Shown in pieces: positions 2,636 through 64,000 of a stretch of DNA of 64,000 bases. Position numbers and translations under genes: made by a program. Source of the DNA: Escherichia phage T4; the sequence record OL964735.1; one strand, given 5' to 3'. Numbering within the stretch: the stretch's first letter is position 1; each line of letters opens with the position of its first letter. The notes beneath the pieces are model-generated. The model made no database searches and was not told the origin of the DNA. It saw only the letters and a list, made by a program, of their open reading frames with translations.

Positions 2636-4260
<1,625 letters not shown>

Positions 4261-7990: not shown

Positions 7991-8016
7991 TCTCTAACGA
8001 TAGAAACACAATTTTA

Positions 8017-8039
8017 GGGAACCTTCGGGTTCCCTTTTT
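8017..8039 (+). terminator. intrinsic terminator after gene 23
   Basis: GGGAACC-TTCG-GGTTCCC hairpin followed by TTTTT. Confidence 0.75.
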
Positions 8040-14188: not shown

Positions 14189-15697
14189 ATGGATATTAAA
14201 GTACATTTTCACGACTTCAGTCATGTACGCATCGATTGTGAAGAGAGCACGTTCCACGAATTAAGAGATTTCTTTTCGTTTGAGGCCGATGGATATAGAT
14301 TTAATCCTCGCTTCAGATATGGCAACTGGGATGGACGAATCCGTCTTTTAGATTATAATCGTCTTCTTCCATTCGGCTTAGTCGGGCAAATTAAAAAATT
14401 CTGTGATAATTTTGGCTATAAAGCCTGGATTGACCCACAAATTAACGAAAAAGAAGAATTATCAAGAAAAGATTTTGATGAATGGCTTTCTAAATTAGAA
14501 ATCTATTCAGGAAATAAAAGAATTGAACCGCACTGGTATCAAAAAGATGCAGTGTTCGAAGGATTAGTTAATCGTCGTAGAATTCTTAATCTTCCAACAT
14601 CTGCAGGTAAATCTTTAATTCAAGCTTTGCTTGCGCGATATTATTTGGAAAATTATGAAGGTAAAATTCTTATCATTGTTCCAACAACTGCTCTGACAAC
14701 TCAGATGGCTGATGACTTCGTCGACTATCGTTTATTCAGCCATGCAATGATAAAGAAAATTGGTGGCGGAGCATCAAAAGATGATAAATATAAAAATGAT
14801 GCACCAGTCGTTGTTGGTACATGGCAAACTGTAGTAAAACAACCGAAAGAATGGTTCTCACAGTTTGGAATGATGATGAATGATGAATGCCATCTTGCTA
14901 CAGGAAAAAGTATTTCATCTATCATATCAGGTTTAAATAACTGCATGTTCAAATTCGGTTTGTCTGGTTCATTACGTGATGGCAAAGCCAATATCATGCA
15001 GTATGTTGGAATGTTTGGTGAAATATTTAAACCAGTAACGACTTCTAAATTAATGGAAGATGGACAAGTAACTGAGCTAAAAATTAATAGTATTTTTCTT
15101 CGCTATCCCGATGAGTTCACTACTAAATTAAAGGGAAAAACTTACCAAGAAGAAATAAAAATTATTACTGGGCTTAGTAAAAGAAATAAATGGATCGCTA
15201 AATTAGCTATTAAGCTTGCGCAAAAAGATGAAAACGCTTTTGTCATGTTTAAACATGTATCGCATGGTAAAGCTATTTTCGATTTAATTAAAAATGAATA
15301 CGATAAAGTTTATTACGTATCAGGGGAAGTTGATACCGAAACCCGCAATATAATGAAAACCTTAGCTGAAAATGGTAAAGGAATAATTATAGTAGCTAGT
15401 TATGGTGTATTTTCTACTGGTATTTCAGTTAAAAATCTGCATCACGTTGTTTTAGCGCACGGTGTTAAATCAAAAATCATTGTATTACAAACAATCGGTC
15501 GTGTATTACGTAAGCATGGTTCTAAGACAATAGCAACAGTCTGGGACCTCATAGATGACGCAGGCGTCAAGCCAAAATCTGCTAATACGAAAAAGAAATA
15601 TGTTCATTTGAACTATCTTTTAAAACACGGCATTGATCGTATTCAGCGCTACGCAGATGAAAAATTTAATTACGTAATGAAAACAGTTAATTTATAA
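14189..15697 (+). CDS. uvsW: UvsW RNA-DNA and DNA helicase
   Basis: 502-aa ORF; Walker A PTSAGKS and DECH box. Confidence 0.93.
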   Translation: MDIKVHFHDFSHVRIDCEESTFHELRDFFSFEADGYRFNPRFRYGNWDGRIRLLDYNRLLPFGLVGQIKKFCDNFGYKAWIDPQINEKEELSRKDFDEWLSKLEIYSGNKRIEPHWYQKDAVFEGLVNRRRILNLPTSAGKSLIQALLARYYLENYEGKILIIVPTTALTTQMADDFVDYRLFSHAMIKKIGGGASKDDKYKNDAPVVVGTWQTVVKQPKEWFSQFGMMMNDECHLATGKSISSIISGLNNCMFKFGLSGSLRDGKANIMQYVGMFGEIFKPVTTSKLMEDGQVTELKINSIFLRYPDEFTTKLKGKTYQEEIKIITGLSKRNKWIAKLAIKLAQKDENAFVMFKHVSHGKAIFDLIKNEYDKVYYVSGEVDTETRNIMKTLAENGKGIIIVASYGVFSTGISVKNLHHVVLAHGVKSKIIVLQTIGRVLRKHGSKTIATVWDLIDDAGVKPKSANTKKKYVHLNYLLKHGIDRIQRYADEKFNYVMKTVNL

Positions 15698-15712
15698 GGG
15701 CTTCGGCCCTTT
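15697..15712 (+). terminator. UUCG-tetraloop hairpin at uvsW stop
   Basis: AGGGC-TTCG-GCCCT followed by TT; overlaps RBS region of next ORF. Confidence 0.5.
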
Positions 15713-15722
15713 GGAGAAAAAG

Positions 15723-15953
15723 ATGTTACTAGAATTTAAACAATTTCTTTATGAAGCTTCTATTGATGAATTTATGGGTAAAATTGCCTCTTGTCAAACA
15801 TTAGAAGGTTTAGAAGAACTTGAAGCTTATTATAAGAAAAGAGTCAAAGAAACTGAATTAAAAGATACTGATGACATCTCTGTGAGAGATGCTTTGGCAG
15901 GAAAAAGAGCTGAATTAGAAGATTCAGACGATGAAGTAGAAGAAAGCTTTTAA
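15723..15953 (+). CDS. hypothetical acidic protein (T4 uvsW.1 position)
   Basis: track starts at TTG 15711; ATG 15723 preceded by GGAG gives 76 aa. Confidence 0.75.
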   Translation: MLLEFKQFLYEASIDEFMGKIASCQTLEGLEELEAYYKKRVKETELKDTDDISVRDALAGKRAELEDSDDEVEESF

Positions 15954-16918: not shown

Positions 16919-17315
16919 ATACTCTATTACTGGAAGCCAGCTGCAGTTTTATCTGCTCAATATCATCAGGATTATCGATGACCGAAAAGCGTATTTCTAC
17001 TATCAGAGTATAATCGTCATAAACGGGTATCACATTAACTGCTAATTTATCAATACGTGGCTCATAGTTTCTTACTGCGCTTTCGATATTGCGTTCAACC
17101 GTGTCAGCAGTAAGAGGAGTCATATTTTCAAAAAGCTGGTCTGATAAATCACATCCAAATTCAGGGTCAAACGGTCTTGAACCTTTTCTTGTTGTAATAA
17201 TTCCCAAAAGACTGTTTTTAATTGACCTTAATCCAAGCGATCTGGAAACGTCTTTGTTCCAATCCATTTTCATTTCCGGGTCAATATCAGAATAAAGCTT
17301 ATTAATATTTGCCAT
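16917..17315 (-). CDS. 25: baseplate wedge protein (T4 gp25)
   Basis: 132-aa ORF, recognised sequence. Confidence 0.93.
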   Translation of the reverse strand: MANINKLYSDIDPEMKMDWNKDVSRSLGLRSIKNSLLGIITTRKGSRPFDPEFGCDLSDQLFENMTPLTADTVERNIESAVRNYEPRIDKLAVNVIPVYDDYTLIVEIRFSVIDNPDDIEQIKLQLASSNRV

Positions 17316-17941
17316 TATAGTAACTCAAAGAACTCTTTGAGGCCTCTTATTACGTGAGCATGGGTTTTTCCACACTCTGGACACTTAATTGGAACAGCCA
17401 AATAAACGGTAGGCTTTAAAAGCATATCTTTTATAGCTACAATATCTGACTCTGTGATGATAGAATATAAATCTTCTAGTTCCTTTTCATTTAAGTCTTC
17501 AACTGGAATGCTTTCCCCGTTAGCATGAATCGTTTCTATACATGATACTATCATGTGGGCTATATTTTTATCATCAAAAATTTTAGGGTATCGGAATTTA
17601 ATTTTAATGTCACCTAGTGTATACCAGAGGTCTTCTGGTGCATCTATTTGTGTATGTAATAGATTTATATGGGTTGGTATTTCAGTTCCACAGGTGCACT
17701 TCCAGGAGTTTTCGTGATTAACTTCACCGAGAGAATGTGCCCATAAATGAATCAACAATAGTTCTGATTCTTGGCGGTTTAAATCTTTTGCATTTGTGCA
17801 GTCTTTGATTAGCTTTTTAACAATTACTTCTACGGAACCATTATTTTTGGCAGTAATAAGTTCTAGATATTCTTTAAGCGTGAATGCGCGACAATTGATT
17901 ATTTTAGAACCAACTCTCACATCAAATTTGTATTCATACAT
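17315..17941 (-). CDS. 26: baseplate hub protein (T4 gp26)
   Basis: 208-aa ORF; stop overlaps gene 25 start. Confidence 0.9.
17316..17347 (-). promoter_or_regulatory. structured translation initiation region of gene 25 (hairpin between SD and AUG)
   Basis: minus strand GAGG is about 27 nt from the AUG, with a 7-bp hairpin CTCAAAG-AGTT-CTTTGAG in between. Confidence 0.6.
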
Positions 17942-47558: not shown

Positions 47559-47958
47559 ACTTTTTGAAAGTTTTTCGCAAAAGTTCAATGATTTCATCTA
47601 CATTGTTTTCGTCAACAATGCAGTGAATTTTTGTTACGCCAGAAACCTTGTCTTTGACTTCATCTTCTTCAGAAGTCGGTTCTTTATATTCGCGGAAACA
47701 ATAAAACTCTTCTTCACTAAGTTCAAAATAATCATCACCCATACCATCATCATTATAGATTTCACCATTAGCACAAATGATTTCGGTTACATAATCAAAG
47801 CCATCTAAACTTGATATTGATTTAACTTCAAACCAACCGCCATTTTCTTGAATGATGCCGACCATACTAGCATTTGATGAACTAATATCAATGAAAGATT
47901 TAATACGATGTGGATTTAACTCGTATTTTTTGCCGATTTCCATTTTGATTTTCCTCAT
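47557..47958 (-). CDS. hypothetical protein (frd.2 position)
   Basis: 133-aa ORF. Confidence 0.6.
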   Translation of the reverse strand: MRKIKMEIGKKYELNPHRIKSFIDISSSNASMVGIIQENGGWFEVKSISSLDGFDYVTEIICANGEIYNDDGMGDDYFELSEEEFYCFREYKEPTSEEDEVKDKVSGVTKIHCIVDENNVDEIIELLRKTFKK

Positions 47959-57219: not shown

Positions 57220-57224
57220 ATTGA

Positions 57225-57247
57225 GGGAGCCTTCGGGTTCCCTTTTT
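57225..57247 (+). terminator. intrinsic terminator after gene 35
   Basis: GGGAGCC-TTCG-GGTTCCC hairpin (one GU pair) followed by TTTTTCTT. Confidence 0.75.
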
Positions 57248-57250
57248 CTT

Positions 57251-57258
57251 TATAAATA
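57251..57258 (+). promoter_or_regulatory. late promoter TATAAATA for gene 36
   Basis: exact motif 23 nt upstream of ATG 57282. Confidence 0.7.
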
Positions 57259-57955: not shown

Positions 57956-60900
57956 ATGGCTACTTTAAAACAAATACAATTTAAAAGAAGCAAAATCGCA
58001 GGAACACGTCCTGCTGCTTCAGTATTAGCCGAAGGTGAATTGGCTATAAACTTAAAAGATAGAACAATTTTTACTAAAGATGATTCAGGAAATATCATCG
58101 ATCTAGGTTTTGCTAAAGGCGGGCAAGTTGATGGCAACGTTACTATTAACGGACTTTTGAGATTAAATGGCGATTATGTACAAACAGGTGGAATGACTGT
58201 AAACGGACCCATTGGTTCTACTGATGGCGTCACTGCAAAAATTTTCAGATCTACACAGGGTTCATTTTATGCAAGAGCAACAAACGATACTTCAAATGCC
58301 CATTTATGGTTTGAAAATGCCGATGGCACTGAACGTGGCGTTATATATGCTCGCCCTCAAACTACAACTGACGGTGAAATACGCCTTAGGGTTAGACAAG
58401 GAACAGGAAGCACTGCCAACAGTGAATTCTATTTCCGCTCTATAAATGGAGGCGAATTTCAGGCTAACCGTATTTTAGCATCAGATTCGTTAGTAACAAA
58501 ACGCATTGCGGTTGATACCGTTATTCATGATGCCAAAGCATTTGGACAATATGATTCTCACTCTTTGGTTAATTATGTTTATCCTGGAACCGGTGAAACA
58601 AATGGTGTAAACTATCTTCGTAAAGTTCGCGCTAAGTCCGGTGGTACAATTTATCATGAAATTGTTACTGCACAAACAGGCCTGGCTGATGAAGTTTCTT
58701 GGTGGTCTGGTGATACACCAGTATTTAAACTATACGGTATTCGTGACGATGGCAGAATGATTATCCGTAATAGCCTTGCATTAGGTACATTCACTACAAA
58801 TTTCCCGTCTAGTGATTATGGCAACGTCGGTGTAATGGGCGATAAGTATCTTGTTCTCGGCGACACTGTAACTGGCTTGTCATACAAAAAAACTGGTGTA
58901 TTTGATCTAGTTGGCGGTGGATATTCTGTTGCTTCTATTACTCCTGACAGTTTCCGTAGTACTCGTAAAGGTATATTTGGTCGTTCTGAGGACCAAGGCG
59001 CAACTTGGATAATGCCTGGTACAAATGCTGCTCTCTTGTCTGTTCAAACACAAGCTGATAATAACAATGCTGGAGACGGACAAACCCATATCGGGTACAA
59101 TGCTGGCGGTAAAATGAACCACTATTTCCGTGGTACAGGTCAGATGAATATCAATACCCAACAAGGTATGGAAATTAACCCGGGTATTTTGAAATTGGTA
59201 ACTGGCTCTAATAATGTACAATTTTACGCTGACGGAACTATTTCTTCCATTCAACCTATTAAATTAGATAACGAGATATTTTTAACTAAATCTAATAATA
59301 CTGCGGGTCTTAAATTTGGAGCTCCTAGCCAAGTTGATGGCACAAGGACTATCCAATGGAACGGTGGTACTCGCGAAGGACAGAATAAAAACTATGTGAT
59401 TATTAAAGCATGGGGTAACTCATTTAATGCCACTGGTGATAGATCTCGCGAAACGGTTTTCCAAGTATCAGATAGTCAAGGATATTATTTTTATGCTCAT
59501 CGTAAAGCTCCAACCGGCGACGAAACTATTGGACGTATTGAAGCTCAATTTGCTGGGGATGTTTATGCTAAAGGTATTATTGCCAACGGAAATTTTAGAG
59601 TTGTTGGATCAAGCGCTTTAGCCGGCAATGTTACTATGTCTAACGGTTTGTTTGTCCAAGGTGGTTCTTCTATTACTGGACAAGTTAAAATTGGCGGAAC
59701 AGCAAACGCACTGAGAATTTGGAACGCTGAATATGGTGCTATTTTCCGTCGTTCGGAAAGTAACTTTTATATTATTCCAACCAATCAAAATGAAGGAGAA
59801 AGTGGAGACATTCACAGCTCTTTGAGACCTGTGAGAATAGGATTAAACGATGGCATGGTTGGGTTAGGAAGAGATTCTTTTATAGTAGATCAAAATAATG
59901 CTTTAACTACGATAAACAGTAACTCTCGCATTAATGCCAACTTTAGAATGCAATTGGGGCAGTCGGCATACATTGATGCAGAATGTACTGATGCTGTTCG
60001 CCCGGCGGGTGCAGGTTCATTTGCTTCCCAGAATAATGAAGACGTCCGTGCGCCGTTCTATATGAATATTGATAGAACTGATGCTAGTGCATATGTTCCT
60101 ATTTTGAAACAACGTTATGTTCAAGGCAATGGCTGCTATTCATTAGGGACTTTAATTAATAATGGTAATTTCCGAGTTCATTACCATGGCGGCGGAGATA
60201 ACGGTTCTACAGGTCCACAGACTGCTGATTTTGGATGGGAATTTATTAAAAACGGTGATTTTATTTCACCTCGCGATTTAATAGCAGGCAAAGTCAGATT
60301 TGATAGAACTGGTAATATCACTGGTGGTTCTGGTAATTTTGCTAACTTAAACAGTACAATTGAATCACTTAAAACTGATATCATGTCGAGTTACCCAATT
60401 GGTGCTCCGATTCCTTGGCCGAGTGATTCAGTTCCTGCTGGATTTGCTTTGATGGAAGGTCAGACCTTTGATAAGTCCGCATATCCAAAGTTAGCTGTTG
60501 CATATCCTAGCGGTGTTATTCCAGATATGCGCGGGCAAACTATCAAGGGTAAACCAAGTGGTCGTGCTGTTTTGAGCGCTGAGGCAGATGGTGTTAAGGC
60601 TCATAGCCATAGTGCATCGGCTTCAAGTACTGACTTAGGTACTAAAACCACATCAAGCTTTGACTATGGTACGAAGGGAACTAACAGTACGGGTGGACAC
60701 ACTCACTCTGGTAGTGGTTCTACTAGCACAAATGGTGAGCACAGCCACTACATCGAGGCATGGAATGGTACTGGTGTAGGTGGTAATAAGATGTCATCAT
60801 ATGCCATATCATACAGGGCGGGTGGGAGTAACACTAATGCAGCAGGGAACCACAGTCACACTTTCTCTTTTGGGACTAGCAGTGCTGGCGACCATTCCCA

Positions 60901-61036
60901 CTCTGTAGGTATTGGTGCTCATACCCACACGGTAGCAATTGGATCACATGGTCATACTATCACTGTAAATAGTACAGGTAATACAGAAAACACGGTTAAA
61001 AACATTGCTTTTAACTATATCGTTCGTTTAGCATAA
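57956..61036 (+). CDS. 37: long tail fibre distal subunit, receptor-binding (T4 gp37)
   Basis: 1026-aa ORF; C-terminal HxH repeat region. Confidence 0.96.
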
Positions 61037-61063
61037 GGAGAGGGGCTTCGGCCCCTTCTAAAT
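61036..61063 (+). promoter_or_regulatory. structured translation initiation region of gene 38 (hairpin between SD and AUG)
   Basis: AAGGAG at 61036-61041 is 22 nt from ATG 61064; AGGGGC-TTCG-GCCCCT hairpin at 61041-61056 lies between. Confidence 0.6.
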
Positions 61064-61615
61064 ATGAAAATATATCATTATTATTTTGACACTAAAGAAT
61101 TTTACAAAGAAGAAAATTACAAACCGGTTAAAGGCCTCGGTCTTCCTGCTCATTCAACAATTAAAAAACCTTTAGAACCTAAAGAAGGATACGCGGTTGT
61201 ATTTGATGAACGTACTCAGGATTGGATTTATGAAGAAGACCATCGCGGAAAACGCGCATGGACTTTTAATAAAGAAGAAATTTTTATAAGTGACATTGGA
61301 AGCCCGGTTGGTATAACTTTCGATGAGCCCGGCGAATTTGATATATGGACTGATGACGGTTGGAAAGAAGACGAAACATATAAGCGAGTTTTAATTCGTA
61401 ATAGAAAAATTGAAGAATTATATAAAGAGTTCCAAGTTTTAAATAATATGATTGAAGCTTCTGTCGCCAATAAAAAGGAAAAATTCTATTATAAAAACCT
61501 TAAGCGGTTCTTTGCTCTTTTAGAAAAGCATGAGCATTTAGGTGGTGAATTCCCTTCATGGCCTGAAAAAGAACAGAAGCCTTGGTATAAGCGTTTATTC
61601 AAGCATTACGTATAA
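61064..61615 (+). CDS. 38: tail fibre assembly chaperone / adhesin (T4 gp38)
   Basis: 183-aa ORF. Confidence 0.93.
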   Translation: MKIYHYYFDTKEFYKEENYKPVKGLGLPAHSTIKKPLEPKEGYAVVFDERTQDWIYEEDHRGKRAWTFNKEEIFISDIGSPVGITFDEPGEFDIWTDDGWKEDETYKRVLIRNRKIEELYKEFQVLNNMIEASVANKKEKFYYKNLKRFFALLEKHEHLGGEFPSWPEKEQKPWYKRLFKHYV

Positions 61616-61618
61616 ATA
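61611..61618 (+). promoter_or_regulatory. late promoter TATAAATA for holin gene t
   Basis: exact motif overlapping gene 38 stop, 17 nt upstream of t ATG. Confidence 0.65.
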
Positions 61619-61635
61619 TCTTAAAAGGAGGGTCT

Positions 61636-62292
61636 ATGGCAGCACCTAGAATATCATTTTCACCCTCTGATATTCTATTTGGTGTTCTAGATCGCTTGTT
61701 CAAAGATAACGCTACCGGGAAGGTTCTTGCTTCCCGGGTAGCTGTCGTAATTCTTTTGTTTATAATGGCGATTGTTTGGTATAGGGGAGATAGTTTCTTT
61801 GAGTACTATAAGCAATCAAAGTATGAAACATACAGTGAAAATATTGAAAAGGAAAGAACTGCACGCTTTGAATCTGTCGCCCTGGAACAACTCCAGATAG
61901 TTCATATATCATCTGAGGCAGACTTTAGTGCGGTGTATTCTTTCCGCCCTAAAAACTTAAACTATTTTGTTGATATTATAGCATACGAAGGAAAATTACC
62001 TTCAACAATAAGTGAAAAATCACTTGGAGGATATCCTGTTGATAAAACTATGGATGAATATACAGTTCATTTAAATGGACGTCATTATTATTCCAACTCA
62101 AAATTTGCTTTTTTACCAACTAAAAAGCCTACTCCCGAAATAAACTACATGTACAGTTGTCCATATTTTAATTTGGATAATATCTATGCTGGAACGATAA
62201 CCATGTACTGGTATAGAAATGATCATATAAGTAATGACCGCCTTGAATCAATATGTGCTCAGGCGGCCAGAATATTAGGAAGGGCTAAATAA
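61636..62292 (+). CDS. t: holin T (lysis timing, lysis inhibition)
   Basis: 218-aa ORF with single TM helix VAVVILLFIMAIVWY and large C-terminal domain. Confidence 0.93.
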   Translation: MAAPRISFSPSDILFGVLDRLFKDNATGKVLASRVAVVILLFIMAIVWYRGDSFFEYYKQSKYETYSENIEKERTARFESVALEQLQIVHISSEADFSAVYSFRPKNLNYFVDIIAYEGKLPSTISEKSLGGYPVDKTMDEYTVHLNGRHYYSNSKFAFLPTKKPTPEINYMYSCPYFNLDNIYAGTITMYWYRNDHISNDRLESICAQAARILGRAK

Positions 62293-62565
62293 TTATTTGT
62301 TCGTATACATCTCTAGATATCGATATACACCCTCAAAACCCTCGTTGAATTCGTCGATGAGGGTTTTCTTATCTTCTTGAGTTAATTCAGAAACAATTTT
62401 ACGGAATGAATTTTGATTTAACTTTCTACCTTCATGCGTTACTCCAATCTCATTTAGAAATGCAATAAAATTAGCACGATTCTCAACAATATCTTCTCTG
62501 GAAAATTTAATCAAAATAGATGCAACAGTAATAATTTCACGAACTGTATCAATGTTTTTATTCAT
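62293..62565 (-). CDS. asiA: anti-sigma70 factor AsiA
   Basis: 90-aa ORF, recognised sequence. Confidence 0.93.
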   Translation of the reverse strand: MNKNIDTVREIITVASILIKFSREDIVENRANFIAFLNEIGVTHEGRKLNQNSFRKIVSELTQEDKKTLIDEFNEGFEGVYRYLEMYTNK

Positions 62566-62577
62566 TAACTATACCAC

Positions 62578-62730
62578 TCAATTAGTTGACTTTGTTATAA
62601 TATCATCAGACGCTTGATTTGTAAACTGGTCTGTGTAATTTTCTTCAAAAATTTTTTCTACGAATTCCTTGAACGATTCACGTTCCTGAGCTACATTATG
62701 CTCGATTACCTTTTCAAGATTATGACTCAT
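62578..62730 (-). CDS. hypothetical small protein (50 aa) between asiA and arn
   Basis: ORF below track cutoff; ATG overlaps arn stop (ATGA); acidic. Confidence 0.4.
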   Translation of the reverse strand: MSHNLEKVIEHNVAQERESFKEFVEKIFEENYTDQFTNQASDDIITKSTN

Positions 62731-63005
62731 TCGAAATAATCTTCAATTTCATAATCATGGACATAAATCATTATAGTTTTTAATACATCATCAATATTTT
62801 TTCCTGGAGCTGGAATTACGTAAAAATACCCTGCTTTTGAGAGGTCTTTATAAGTTCCAATCAAGAAATCATTATTCTCAAGATGTAACTCTTCAACTAA
62901 TTCATTGACAATTGAATGGTATAGGTTTGGCAGAAACTTATATAGCTTTTCTAGAATATCAATTTTGAATGTATATTGAACCACGGACTGAGAATCAATA
63001 ATCAT
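62727..63005 (-). CDS. arn: Arn, anti-restriction (McrBC inhibitor)
   Basis: 92-aa acidic ORF. Confidence 0.88.
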   Translation of the reverse strand: MIIDSQSVVQYTFKIDILEKLYKFLPNLYHSIVNELVEELHLENNDFLIGTYKDLSKAGYFYVIPAPGKNIDDVLKTIMIYVHDYEIEDYFE

Positions 63006-63088
63006 AGACCTTCCCCTTATGTTTCTGTTTGCGATTAGATTCTTTAAACGCTTTCTTCTTATCCTTATGAACAGAAGCTTTATTAAAA

Positions 63089-63307
63089 TTATGCTTTGCG
63101 ACTAAATTGTTCATAGTGCTGAATTACCTCTCTTAAACATTTGCATGTGAATGAAAACTTTTTAGCTACACCACATTCAAATATATGTTCTCTTAAATCG
63201 CGTGTATCGGTATATCCCATCTCAACAATAAAATGCCGTATTAGATTTTTATCTTTATCGTTTAGAGAATTAAAATAATCAGATTTTGAATTAATTTCCC
63301 TGGCCAA
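63089..63307 (-). CDS. hypothetical protein (arn.x / motA-proximal region)
   Basis: 72-aa ORF. Confidence 0.55.
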   Translation of the reverse strand: MAREINSKSDYFNSLNDKDKNLIRHFIVEMGYTDTRDLREHIFECGVAKKFSFTCKCLREVIQHYEQFSRKA

Positions 63308-63486
63308 ATTGAATCACCTTCAGTTGACGTTTTAACTCTTTTATCATCTCTTCGTTCATCGCAATATAAAGATCGCGTAGAGCAGGTTTTAGCATTCCAT
63401 TTACTGGAGAACTAAATGGACATACATAATCTTTTCCTACTGGATTTGATTCATAATTCCATCAATTTGAAACTTTTTAATATTCA

Positions 63487-63945
63487 TTAGTAAAGGTCCT
63501 CAGAGTAAAGTTCTTTTTCACTACCACGTTCAATACTTACTTGTCCAGCGTAAGTTGCAATAATCATTGCTTCTTCACGTGTCCAATAATTACTATATTG
63601 GTCAATAAACCCTTGGTCATCATCACAAACTTGCTGAGTAACTAATTGAGGTTTAACTACATCTAAAACTTCTGCCATATCTTTAGAATAATGACGAGCA
63701 CCTGGAATAATAAGAGTTCGTCCATCTTTTAATTTAAAACGGTTGGCTGCGCAAACAATTCGTCGTTGATACTTTTGGTTTTCATCCCAGTACGCAGTCT
63801 GCCAACAGATTTCAGGAACTTCTTTCAGAATATCTTCTTCTGTGCATTTATAACCATGCGCTTTAAATTTTTCAACAAGACTTTCTGGAGTTTCACGAGA
63901 TAAAGGAACATTCAGCATTTTTAAACGATTGATAAATGGGTTCAT
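63487..63945 (-). CDS. hypothetical protein (arn.x / motA-proximal region)
   Basis: 152-aa ORF. Confidence 0.6.
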
Positions 63946-64000
63946 TTAAACCATCCTTTAATACGCTGCCACAAAGTTTTCTGTTGAGCTTTGTTGACGC

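Follow-up and report, generated by a model that had tools for sequence, protein, structure and literature searches.

The window analysed here is a stretch of 64,000 nucleotides, and the 1.2 kb around its gene 37/38 junction is that of phage T4 (99.8-99.9% identity). The features matched are gene 37, gene 38 and t (holin), and re-sequenced T4 genomes match across the whole 1201-nt query. Gene 37, for the distal subunit of the long tail fibre (1026 aa), occupies 57956-61036 on the + strand according to the ORF listing and the T4 match. Its TAA stop codon is at 61034-61036. Gene 38, for the distal tail-fibre assembly chaperone (183 aa), occupies 61064-61615 (+) with its AUG at 61064-61066, and the ORF listing places t at 61636-62292 (+). 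The nearest late promoter upstream of gene 38 is the TATAAATA before gene 36 (57251-57258, +). Nearby on the + strand this consensus is found solely at 57251 and at 61611, the second being before t, and a + strand scan for TATAAATA gave gene 38 no late promoter of its own between the two. Since there is none, gene 38 must be translated from a gene 36-37-38 message, and the promoter at 57251 is the presumed driver of that message.

Positions 61034-61066 read TAAGGAG AGGGGC TTCG GCCCCT TCTAAAT ATG, with GCA just before. The Shine-Dalgarno (SD) sequence UAAGGAG (61034-61040, +, with AAGGAG at 61035-61040) overlaps the stop codon of gene 37. Its 7 consecutive bases are complementary to the 3' end of 16S rRNA. 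Next comes a hairpin, whose 5' arm AGGGGC (61041-61046, +) is defined by sequence, folding and covariation. Its UUCG tetraloop (61047-61050, +) is closed by C61046-G61051 on a 6-bp Watson-Crick stem, and its 3' arm is GCCCCU (61051-61056, +). A pyrimidine/A-rich tail of 7 nt, UCUAAAU (61057-61063, +), runs from the hairpin to the AUG and would be the effective spacer once the hairpin is folded. The initial annotation had described an AAGGAG upstream of the gene 38 AUG with an AGGGGC-TTCG-GCCCCT hairpin between them, and both the sequences and their positions are confirmed. It had also placed the SD 22 nt from the AUG, too far for a linear ribosome-binding site. The SD is indeed too far away, but the spacing here is 23 nt, counted from the last G of GGAG to the A of AUG. 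We took an SD more than about 13 nt from the start as too far for linear function, and an effective spacer of about 5-9 nt as suitable. The stretch from the hairpin to the AUG contains no GGAG, GAGG, AGGA or AAGG. The gene 38 layout is that of a split site: the SD is distant, there is no nearer one, a stable hairpin fills the gap and the structure is conserved.

The published spacing of 22 nt stems from AF158101, in which the hairpin's 3' arm is one C shorter. That record (AF158101/NC_000866, 159636-159640) has GCCC, whereas the window has GCCCC (61051-61056). The longer form is also found in re-sequenced T4 genomes and in most relatives, and the loss of the C in AF158101 probably goes back to a mistake in early sequencing of this GC-rich hairpin. 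The difference changes the fold: the reference folds as an 8-bp helix with a G.U pair, whereas the window stem is a clean 6-bp helix. The two records also differ in length. The coordinate offset of the window relative to AF158101 is 98487 at the gene 25 start, 98586 at frd.2 and 98585 at gene 38, therefore the window is about 99 nt shorter than AF158101 somewhere between 115.8 and 146.5 kb of T4 (about 17315 to 47943 in the window).

Folding of the junction RNA

Alone, the 6-bp hairpin of gene 38 is worth -11.2 kcal/mol, and -12.5 kcal/mol if G61040.U61057 is added. Its five G-C pairs have pairing probabilities of 0.99-1.0 in contexts of 52, 101 and 201 nt. The window has 8 hairpins with a UUCG loop and 6 or more Watson-Crick pairs, whereas 200 dinucleotide shuffles gave a mean of 0.15 and a maximum of 2, and CTTCGG occurs 25 times where 14.4 are expected. 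It might be supposed that an SD-like sequence has simply come to lie beside a GC-rich palindrome by chance, and the 66-nt region reaches a z-score of only -1.76 when compared with dinucleotide shuffles. We give that score little weight because GC-rich dinucleotides are taken to survive the shuffle. The excess of hairpins, the covariation of the stem, the presence of the junction in 208 phage records and the lack of an alternative SD all speak against chance, and we regard it as a negligible explanation. Rfam covariance models run over 59000-64000 gave no family at E <= 1.

The SD may be partly paired as well. ViennaRNA predicts an extension of the helix in which GGA (61037-61039) pairs with UCU (61057-61059) at a probability of 0.33-0.62, and in naked RNA the GGAG of the SD has a predicted probability of 0.23-0.53 of being unpaired. 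One could argue from this that the hairpin represses gene 38, partly burying the SD in the extended helix and so keeping the chaperone scarce relative to gp37. The pyrimidine-rich tail is able to pair with GGAG in all variants, which fits such a role. However, a bulge breaks up the extension, which brings only about 1.3-2.6 kcal/mol and in many relatives consists of G.U pairs. The seven-base pairing with 16S rRNA should outcompete it, and the literature gives hairpins of this kind a positive role (PMC3014915, PMC7297116). Repression by burial of the SD is a poor candidate, and we think it quite improbable.

We argue that the locus is probably the split (non-contiguous) ribosome-binding site of T4 gene 38. 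The split site is real and conserved, and it is almost certainly functional. Gene 38 would be carried on a polycistronic late message begun before gene 36. The only SD, overlapping the gene 37 stop, would be too far from the AUG at 23 nt if the RNA were linear. The 16 nt that intervene would fold at once into a very stable 6-bp hairpin capped by C(UUCG)G. With the hairpin folded, the SD and the AUG would be 7 nt of single strand apart, which is within the working range. Bound to the SD, the 30S subunit could then bring the AUG into its P site, with the hairpin bulging from the mRNA track. That the hairpin shortens the effective spacing had been proposed from the sequence at the outset, and the 7-nt tail, the lack of any other SD, the compensatory changes in the stem and the same reading in print all support it. 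From the literature, the work on gene 25 and the conservation described below, we infer that the ribosome accepts the folded hairpin and initiates more often at gene 38 because of it.

Published split sites and gene 25

The split ribosome-binding sites of T4 genes 38 and 25 are the classic examples of their kind, and this interpretation is already in the literature. The published gene 38 site is the same locus as the one here, with the same SD, hairpin and start codon, so for T4 the split site is already known and nothing new. Both sites are described in PMC3014915 and PMC7297116, along with the finding that mutations which weaken the structure lower initiation. In PMC3014915, by that review's own counting, the structure shortens the spacing from 22 to 5 nt in gene 38 and from 27 to 11 nt in gene 25. 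The same review reports that the gene 25 case was confirmed by lacZ fusions and DMS probing, and that the site works in lacZ reporter fusions. To judge by their titles, the mutational and probing papers that it cites (references 108 and 109) concern gene 25. The gene 25 split site goes back to Nivinskas 1999 and to Malys and Nivinskas 2009, as these are cited in PMC3014915, and PMC7297116 in its passage on the subject credits the gene 38 split site to Gold 1988. A literature search for toeprinting of gene 38 or mutagenesis specific to gene 38 found none.

The gene 25 counterpart lies on the - strand at 17313-17348. It consists of AAGAGG (17348-17343), a C, the hairpin CUCAAAG-AGUU-CUUUGAG (17341-17324), a tail of 8 nt and the ATG at 17315-17313. 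Its linear spacing is 27 nt, as published. The initial annotation had called the gene 38 arrangement the same as that of gene 25, and this stands for the order of the parts. Both have an SD, a hairpin, a short tail and an AUG in that order, and both are within a polycistronic late message. It does not extend to the hairpin itself, which in gene 25 is AU-rich with an AGUU loop instead of UUCG, and weaker (-6.4 kcal/mol versus -11.2 for gene 38). The stop codons are placed differently too: the stop of gene 26 overlaps the AUG of gene 25 (TAATG), whereas at gene 38 it is the SD that the upstream stop overlaps.

The whole window was scanned for further sites. The scan took ORFs of at least 50 codons for which the 15 nt up to position -4 from the start hold no SD core, and which have an SD abutting a hairpin that ends 3-9 nt upstream. 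It returned 3 sites, namely gene 38, gene 25 and frd.2 (47958, -), and only genes 38 and 25 were accepted. We rejected frd.2 at 47958 as a split site since the annotation begins the gene at a second ATG (47943), and this one is preceded by a GAGGA 8 nt upstream. The frd.3-frd.2 junction (47990-47943, -) has a TAA stop, the hairpin GGGGCU-AUCA-AGCCCC and then AUGAGGAAAAUCAAAAUG, and it is the first ATG at 47958 that makes it resemble a split site.

A related case in E. coli is thrS. In the account given in PMC7297116, citing Sacerdot et al. 1998, its hairpin is an operator bound by ThrRS, and it lies between an upstream single-stranded enhancer and a normally spaced SD. Like gene 38, thrS has a ribosome-binding site that is interrupted by a stable hairpin which the ribosome tolerates. 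Unlike thrS, gene 38 has its hairpin between the SD and the AUG. We know of no protein ligand of the gene 38 hairpin. As a rule, structured RNA at a ribosome-binding site inhibits initiation, and the gene 38 site is a textbook exception: it implies that a hairpin can stay folded between the SD and the start codon and still be accommodated by the 30S subunit. There is a practical side as well. Gene callers and ribosome-binding site calculators assume linear spacing and would score gene 38 as having no SD.

Conservation of the junction

A tblastn search found the T4-type gp38 in 296 phage records, and the 57-nt gene 37/38 junction is found in 208 phage records at 80-100% identity. The junction was read in 20 records and in 6 metagenomic or viral contigs. 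Scans of IMG/VR and of metagenomes with the gp38 protein and the 3' end of gene 37 gave 2 and 4 loci; these are too few for covariation, and the annotated phage collection was used instead. In all of the T4-type junctions sampled UAAGGAG is invariant, the stop codon overlaps it and the hairpin follows directly. The position of the SD and a tail of 7-9 nt are kept in the T4-, VR7-, ESCO47- and Mosigvirus-type junctions. The homologues of gp38 share the N-terminus MK(I/L)YH.

The stem varies in a way that keeps its pairing. It is AGGGGC/GCCCCU in T4 and VR7, and AGGGCC/GGCCCU in ESCO47, where a G-C pair has become C-G. In phiD1, F27 and APCEc01 it is AAGGGAC/GUCCCUU, with an A-U pair, and KAW3E185 has the G.U intermediate AAGGGGC/GUCCCUU. 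At the pair adjoining the loop-closing pair, the 13 junction variants have GC six times, AU three times, CG three times and GU once. Covariation was scored on a gap-free, hairpin-centred alignment of 18 nt with these 13 variants, a full-junction MAFFT alignment having been set aside because it mis-registered ESCO47 and TuIa. Although the 13 variants are few and related, 94.5% of the cells are paired versus 85.9% in shuffles, and none of 500 shuffles reached the observed score. Three pairs are changed on both sides, and all slid registers score far lower. The loop is freer. It is UUCG in most T4-type relatives, and UUCU in F27, UUAU in O157 typing phage 6, UUUG in SHBML-50-1 and UUCA in TuIa. 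The idea that a UUCG loop is a required feature of the arrangement is not borne out by these relatives. Taken together, the alignments give good support to selection on the stem of the gene 38 hairpin, and suggest that the exact tetraloop is not under selection.

It must be mentioned that in KAW3E185 (MK373782; 377-390 of our locus L010) the junction hairpin is followed by UUUUUA, and the record labels it a putative transcription terminator. Even so, the gp38 homologue has its only SD on one side of this hairpin and its start on the other.

The overlap of the SD with the stop codon allows another reading. Ribosomes that end at the UAA of gene 37 could stay on the overlapping SD and begin again at the gene 38 AUG, which is 27 nt past the stop codon. 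The hairpin would then be irrelevant, or would block independent initiation. Restart of this kind would be possible without any help from the hairpin, and a ribosome that terminates there has to open the stem, which begins 5 nt past the stop codon. The homologous lambda genes stf and tfa are joined by an overlapping TAATG, which also fits coupling. However, 27 nt is a long gap for direct restart. The stem is conserved with compensatory changes, and these argue that the folded form is under selection. The equivalent site of gene 25 works in lacZ reporter fusions (PMC3014915). Finally, the same cassette also stands before genes with no long upstream ORF seen to end next to it, for example in the viral contigs L038 and L075, where no stop codon of an ORF of at least 60 codons lies within 14 nt. 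We consider coupling as the explanation unlikely, though less so than burial of the SD. The stop codon of gene 37 and the AUG of gene 38 are in the same frame in T4, 30 nt apart. A readthrough fusion of gp37 and gp38 as a conserved feature was rejected, as this frame relation is lost in ESCO47 and TH57.

Gene 37-end hairpins and possible recurrence of the cassette

A split site does not account for where else such hairpins are found. Seven other T-even genera have a GC-rich hairpin after the stop codon of gene 37, and in these an ordinary SD lies 3' of the hairpin, 5-7 nt before the AUG. T2 (4050-4086 of our locus L029) has UAA-A-AGAGGGC-UUCG-GCCCUCU-AAGGA-6 nt-AUG. RB69 has GAGGGGC-UUCG-GCCCCUU-GGAGG, and VR5 and Melville have GGGCC-UUC(G/U)-GGCCC-UGGAGG. 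CIP9 and Miller have a pentaloop, GGGGC-GUAA(A/U)-GCCCC, and then GAGGA or AAGAGG. Citrobacter phage Moon has GGGGC-UUCG-GCCCC-UCU-GAGGA-5 nt-AUG. The gene 38 that follows is an unrelated T2-type adhesin in six of the seven (T2, RB69, VR5, CIP9, Melville and Miller), and in Moon it is a distant T4-type gp38. Because the hairpin is present in all of these T-even genera we take it to predate the split layout, and because all seven have it with an ordinary downstream SD it is not there for the sake of the split site. The hairpin seems to be a standing part of the end of gene 37, and the arrangement of the T4 type, with the SD on its 5' side, looks derived.

The other hairpins in the window are also at gene ends. 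The eight strong C(UUCG)G hairpins, at 8016-8035 (+), 11694-11677 (-), 15696-15711 (+), 24942-24927 (-), 27082-27059 (-), 31878-31857 (-), 57223-57244 (+) and 61040-61057 (+), all come 0-32 nt downstream of the point where a long ORF stops. A U-rich tract follows five of them, and two of those five (27082 and 57223) also precede a late promoter TATAAATA. In this window only that of gene 38 separates an SD from its AUG. After the others comes a U-tract, a late promoter or an ordinary SD. In 1988 Tuerk et al. reportedly worked on the C(UUCG)G tetraloop hairpins found in T4 intercistronic regions. The gene 38 hairpin is like the T4 intercistronic hairpins in its UUCG loop, C-G closing pair, GC-rich stem and position just after a stop codon. 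Their discovery in T4 mRNA is recounted in PMC4371310.

This distribution suggests a different main function. The hairpin could be chiefly an element of the gene 37 end, blocking 3'-to-5' exonucleases or terminating transcription weakly and in part, with the split site a merely tolerated by-product of where the SD lies. In its favor, all eight strong hairpins of the window follow stop codons closely and most have a U-rich tract. The T-even genera keep a like hairpin whichever type of gene 38 follows, with the SD on its 3' side, and Mosigvirus-type stems are followed by UUUUUA, with a putative terminator annotated in the KAW3E185 record. Like intrinsic terminators, the gene 38 hairpin is a GC-rich stem-loop directly after a gene, and Mosigvirus-type relatives add the U-run. 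Unlike them, the T4 copy has no U-tract and fails a consensus scan, and the gene downstream has no promoter of its own. The terminator scan made no call at the gene 38 hairpin, where the tail UCUAAAUA has 3 U in 8 bases; it was passed over because UCUAAAU is not U-rich. A comparable C(UUCG)G hairpin downstream of gene 35 (57223-57244) was picked up by the same scan. As gene 38 lacks its own promoter, the majority of transcripts have to pass the gene 38 hairpin without ending. Moreover, a gene-end role is compatible with the split site. Gene 38 still needs an SD, and this is the only one. That the hairpin is mainly a gene-end element is a serious contender, although we lean slightly against it. 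As a complement to the split site a gene-end role is likely; as the sole function it is unlikely. Apart from serving the split site, the hairpin very probably has a second, older role, which would likely be to protect the 3' end of the upstream message or to terminate transcription weakly.

If the hairpin is older than the split site, it is worth considering how the two came together. DNA homology to lambda stf/tfa is found on both flanks of the junction. It runs up to GCATAA and is found again from AT(G/A)AAAAT(A/T)TAT onwards. The 27-nt segment of T4 that holds the SD and hairpin takes the place of the first 11 codons of lambda tfa, and in lambda the stf-tfa pair is joined by the overlapping TAATG. 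This suggests an origin for the gene 38 layout in which a lambda-like stf/tfa tail-fibre module became attached to the T-even hairpin already present at the end of gene 37, the first 11 codons of tfa being replaced.

The arrangement may not be confined to T4. The junction search also matched Delftia phage PhiW-14, which is unrelated (NC_013697, 99663-99696; 401-434 of our locus L036) and in which 25 nt of the T4 cassette, TAAGGAGAGGGGCTTCGGCCCCTTC, recur exactly. The end of its gene 143 reads TAA-GGAG-AGGGGC-TTCG-GCCCCT-TCGCCGAC-ATG and leads into gene 144. Here too the stop codon overlaps the SD, the tail is 8 nt long, and no other SD is present at the junction of genes 143 and 144. A scan of IMG/VR for GGAGAGGGGCTTCGGCCCCT then gave 54 contigs in 33 distinct contexts (L037-L089). 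In 10 of the 33 the core is followed, after 5-10 nt that hold no SD, by an ATG that opens an ORF of at least 60 aa. The comparable figure for GGGGCUUCGGCCCC hairpins without an upstream SD is 8 of 99 (Fisher one-sided p = 0.003). A nearby start is found in 8 of the 13 contexts where GGAG is free versus 2 of the 20 where it is paired in a longer stem that is followed by a U-run. GGAG-A-GGGGC-UUCG-GCCCC stands directly before start codons in at least 8 unrelated families of viral contigs, and elsewhere its GGAG is part of a longer, terminator-like stem. In two of the downstream proteins, a dCMP deaminase (L075) and a head-tail attachment protein (L038), the Pfam domains begin at residues 7-8, therefore these two ATGs are supported as true starts.

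This recurrence should be considered a lead and not a result. In an unconditioned sample of 119 GGGGCUUCGGCCCC hairpins, a loosely defined upstream SD has no predictive value for a nearby start (3 of 20 versus 8 of 99, p = 0.27). The claim is tentative because only the sample with the exact GGAGA cassette is significant. It is conceivable, though somewhat less likely than not, that an SD, a C(UUCG)G hairpin and an AUG make up a recurrent, portable initiation cassette of phages that extends beyond the two T4 genes, the gene 38 copy having been formed from a lambda-like stf/tfa module and the gene 37-end hairpin. At the very least there are modest comparative extensions here that could seed a survey: the gene 37-end hairpin across the T-evens, the SD on its 5' side only in the T4-type lineage, the free loop, and the cassette in unrelated phages.

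The hairpin between uvsW and uvsW.1 (15696-15711) shows the ordinary order of stop, hairpin, GGAG and AUG. The TAA of the uvsW ORF overlaps the hairpin AAGGGC-UUCG-GCCCUU, and GGAG and the ATG of a 76-aa ORF follow (window 15696-15725, +). AF158101 annotates uvsW there as one CDS of 1764 nt (587 codons), therefore the window has the split uvsW/uvsW.1 version.
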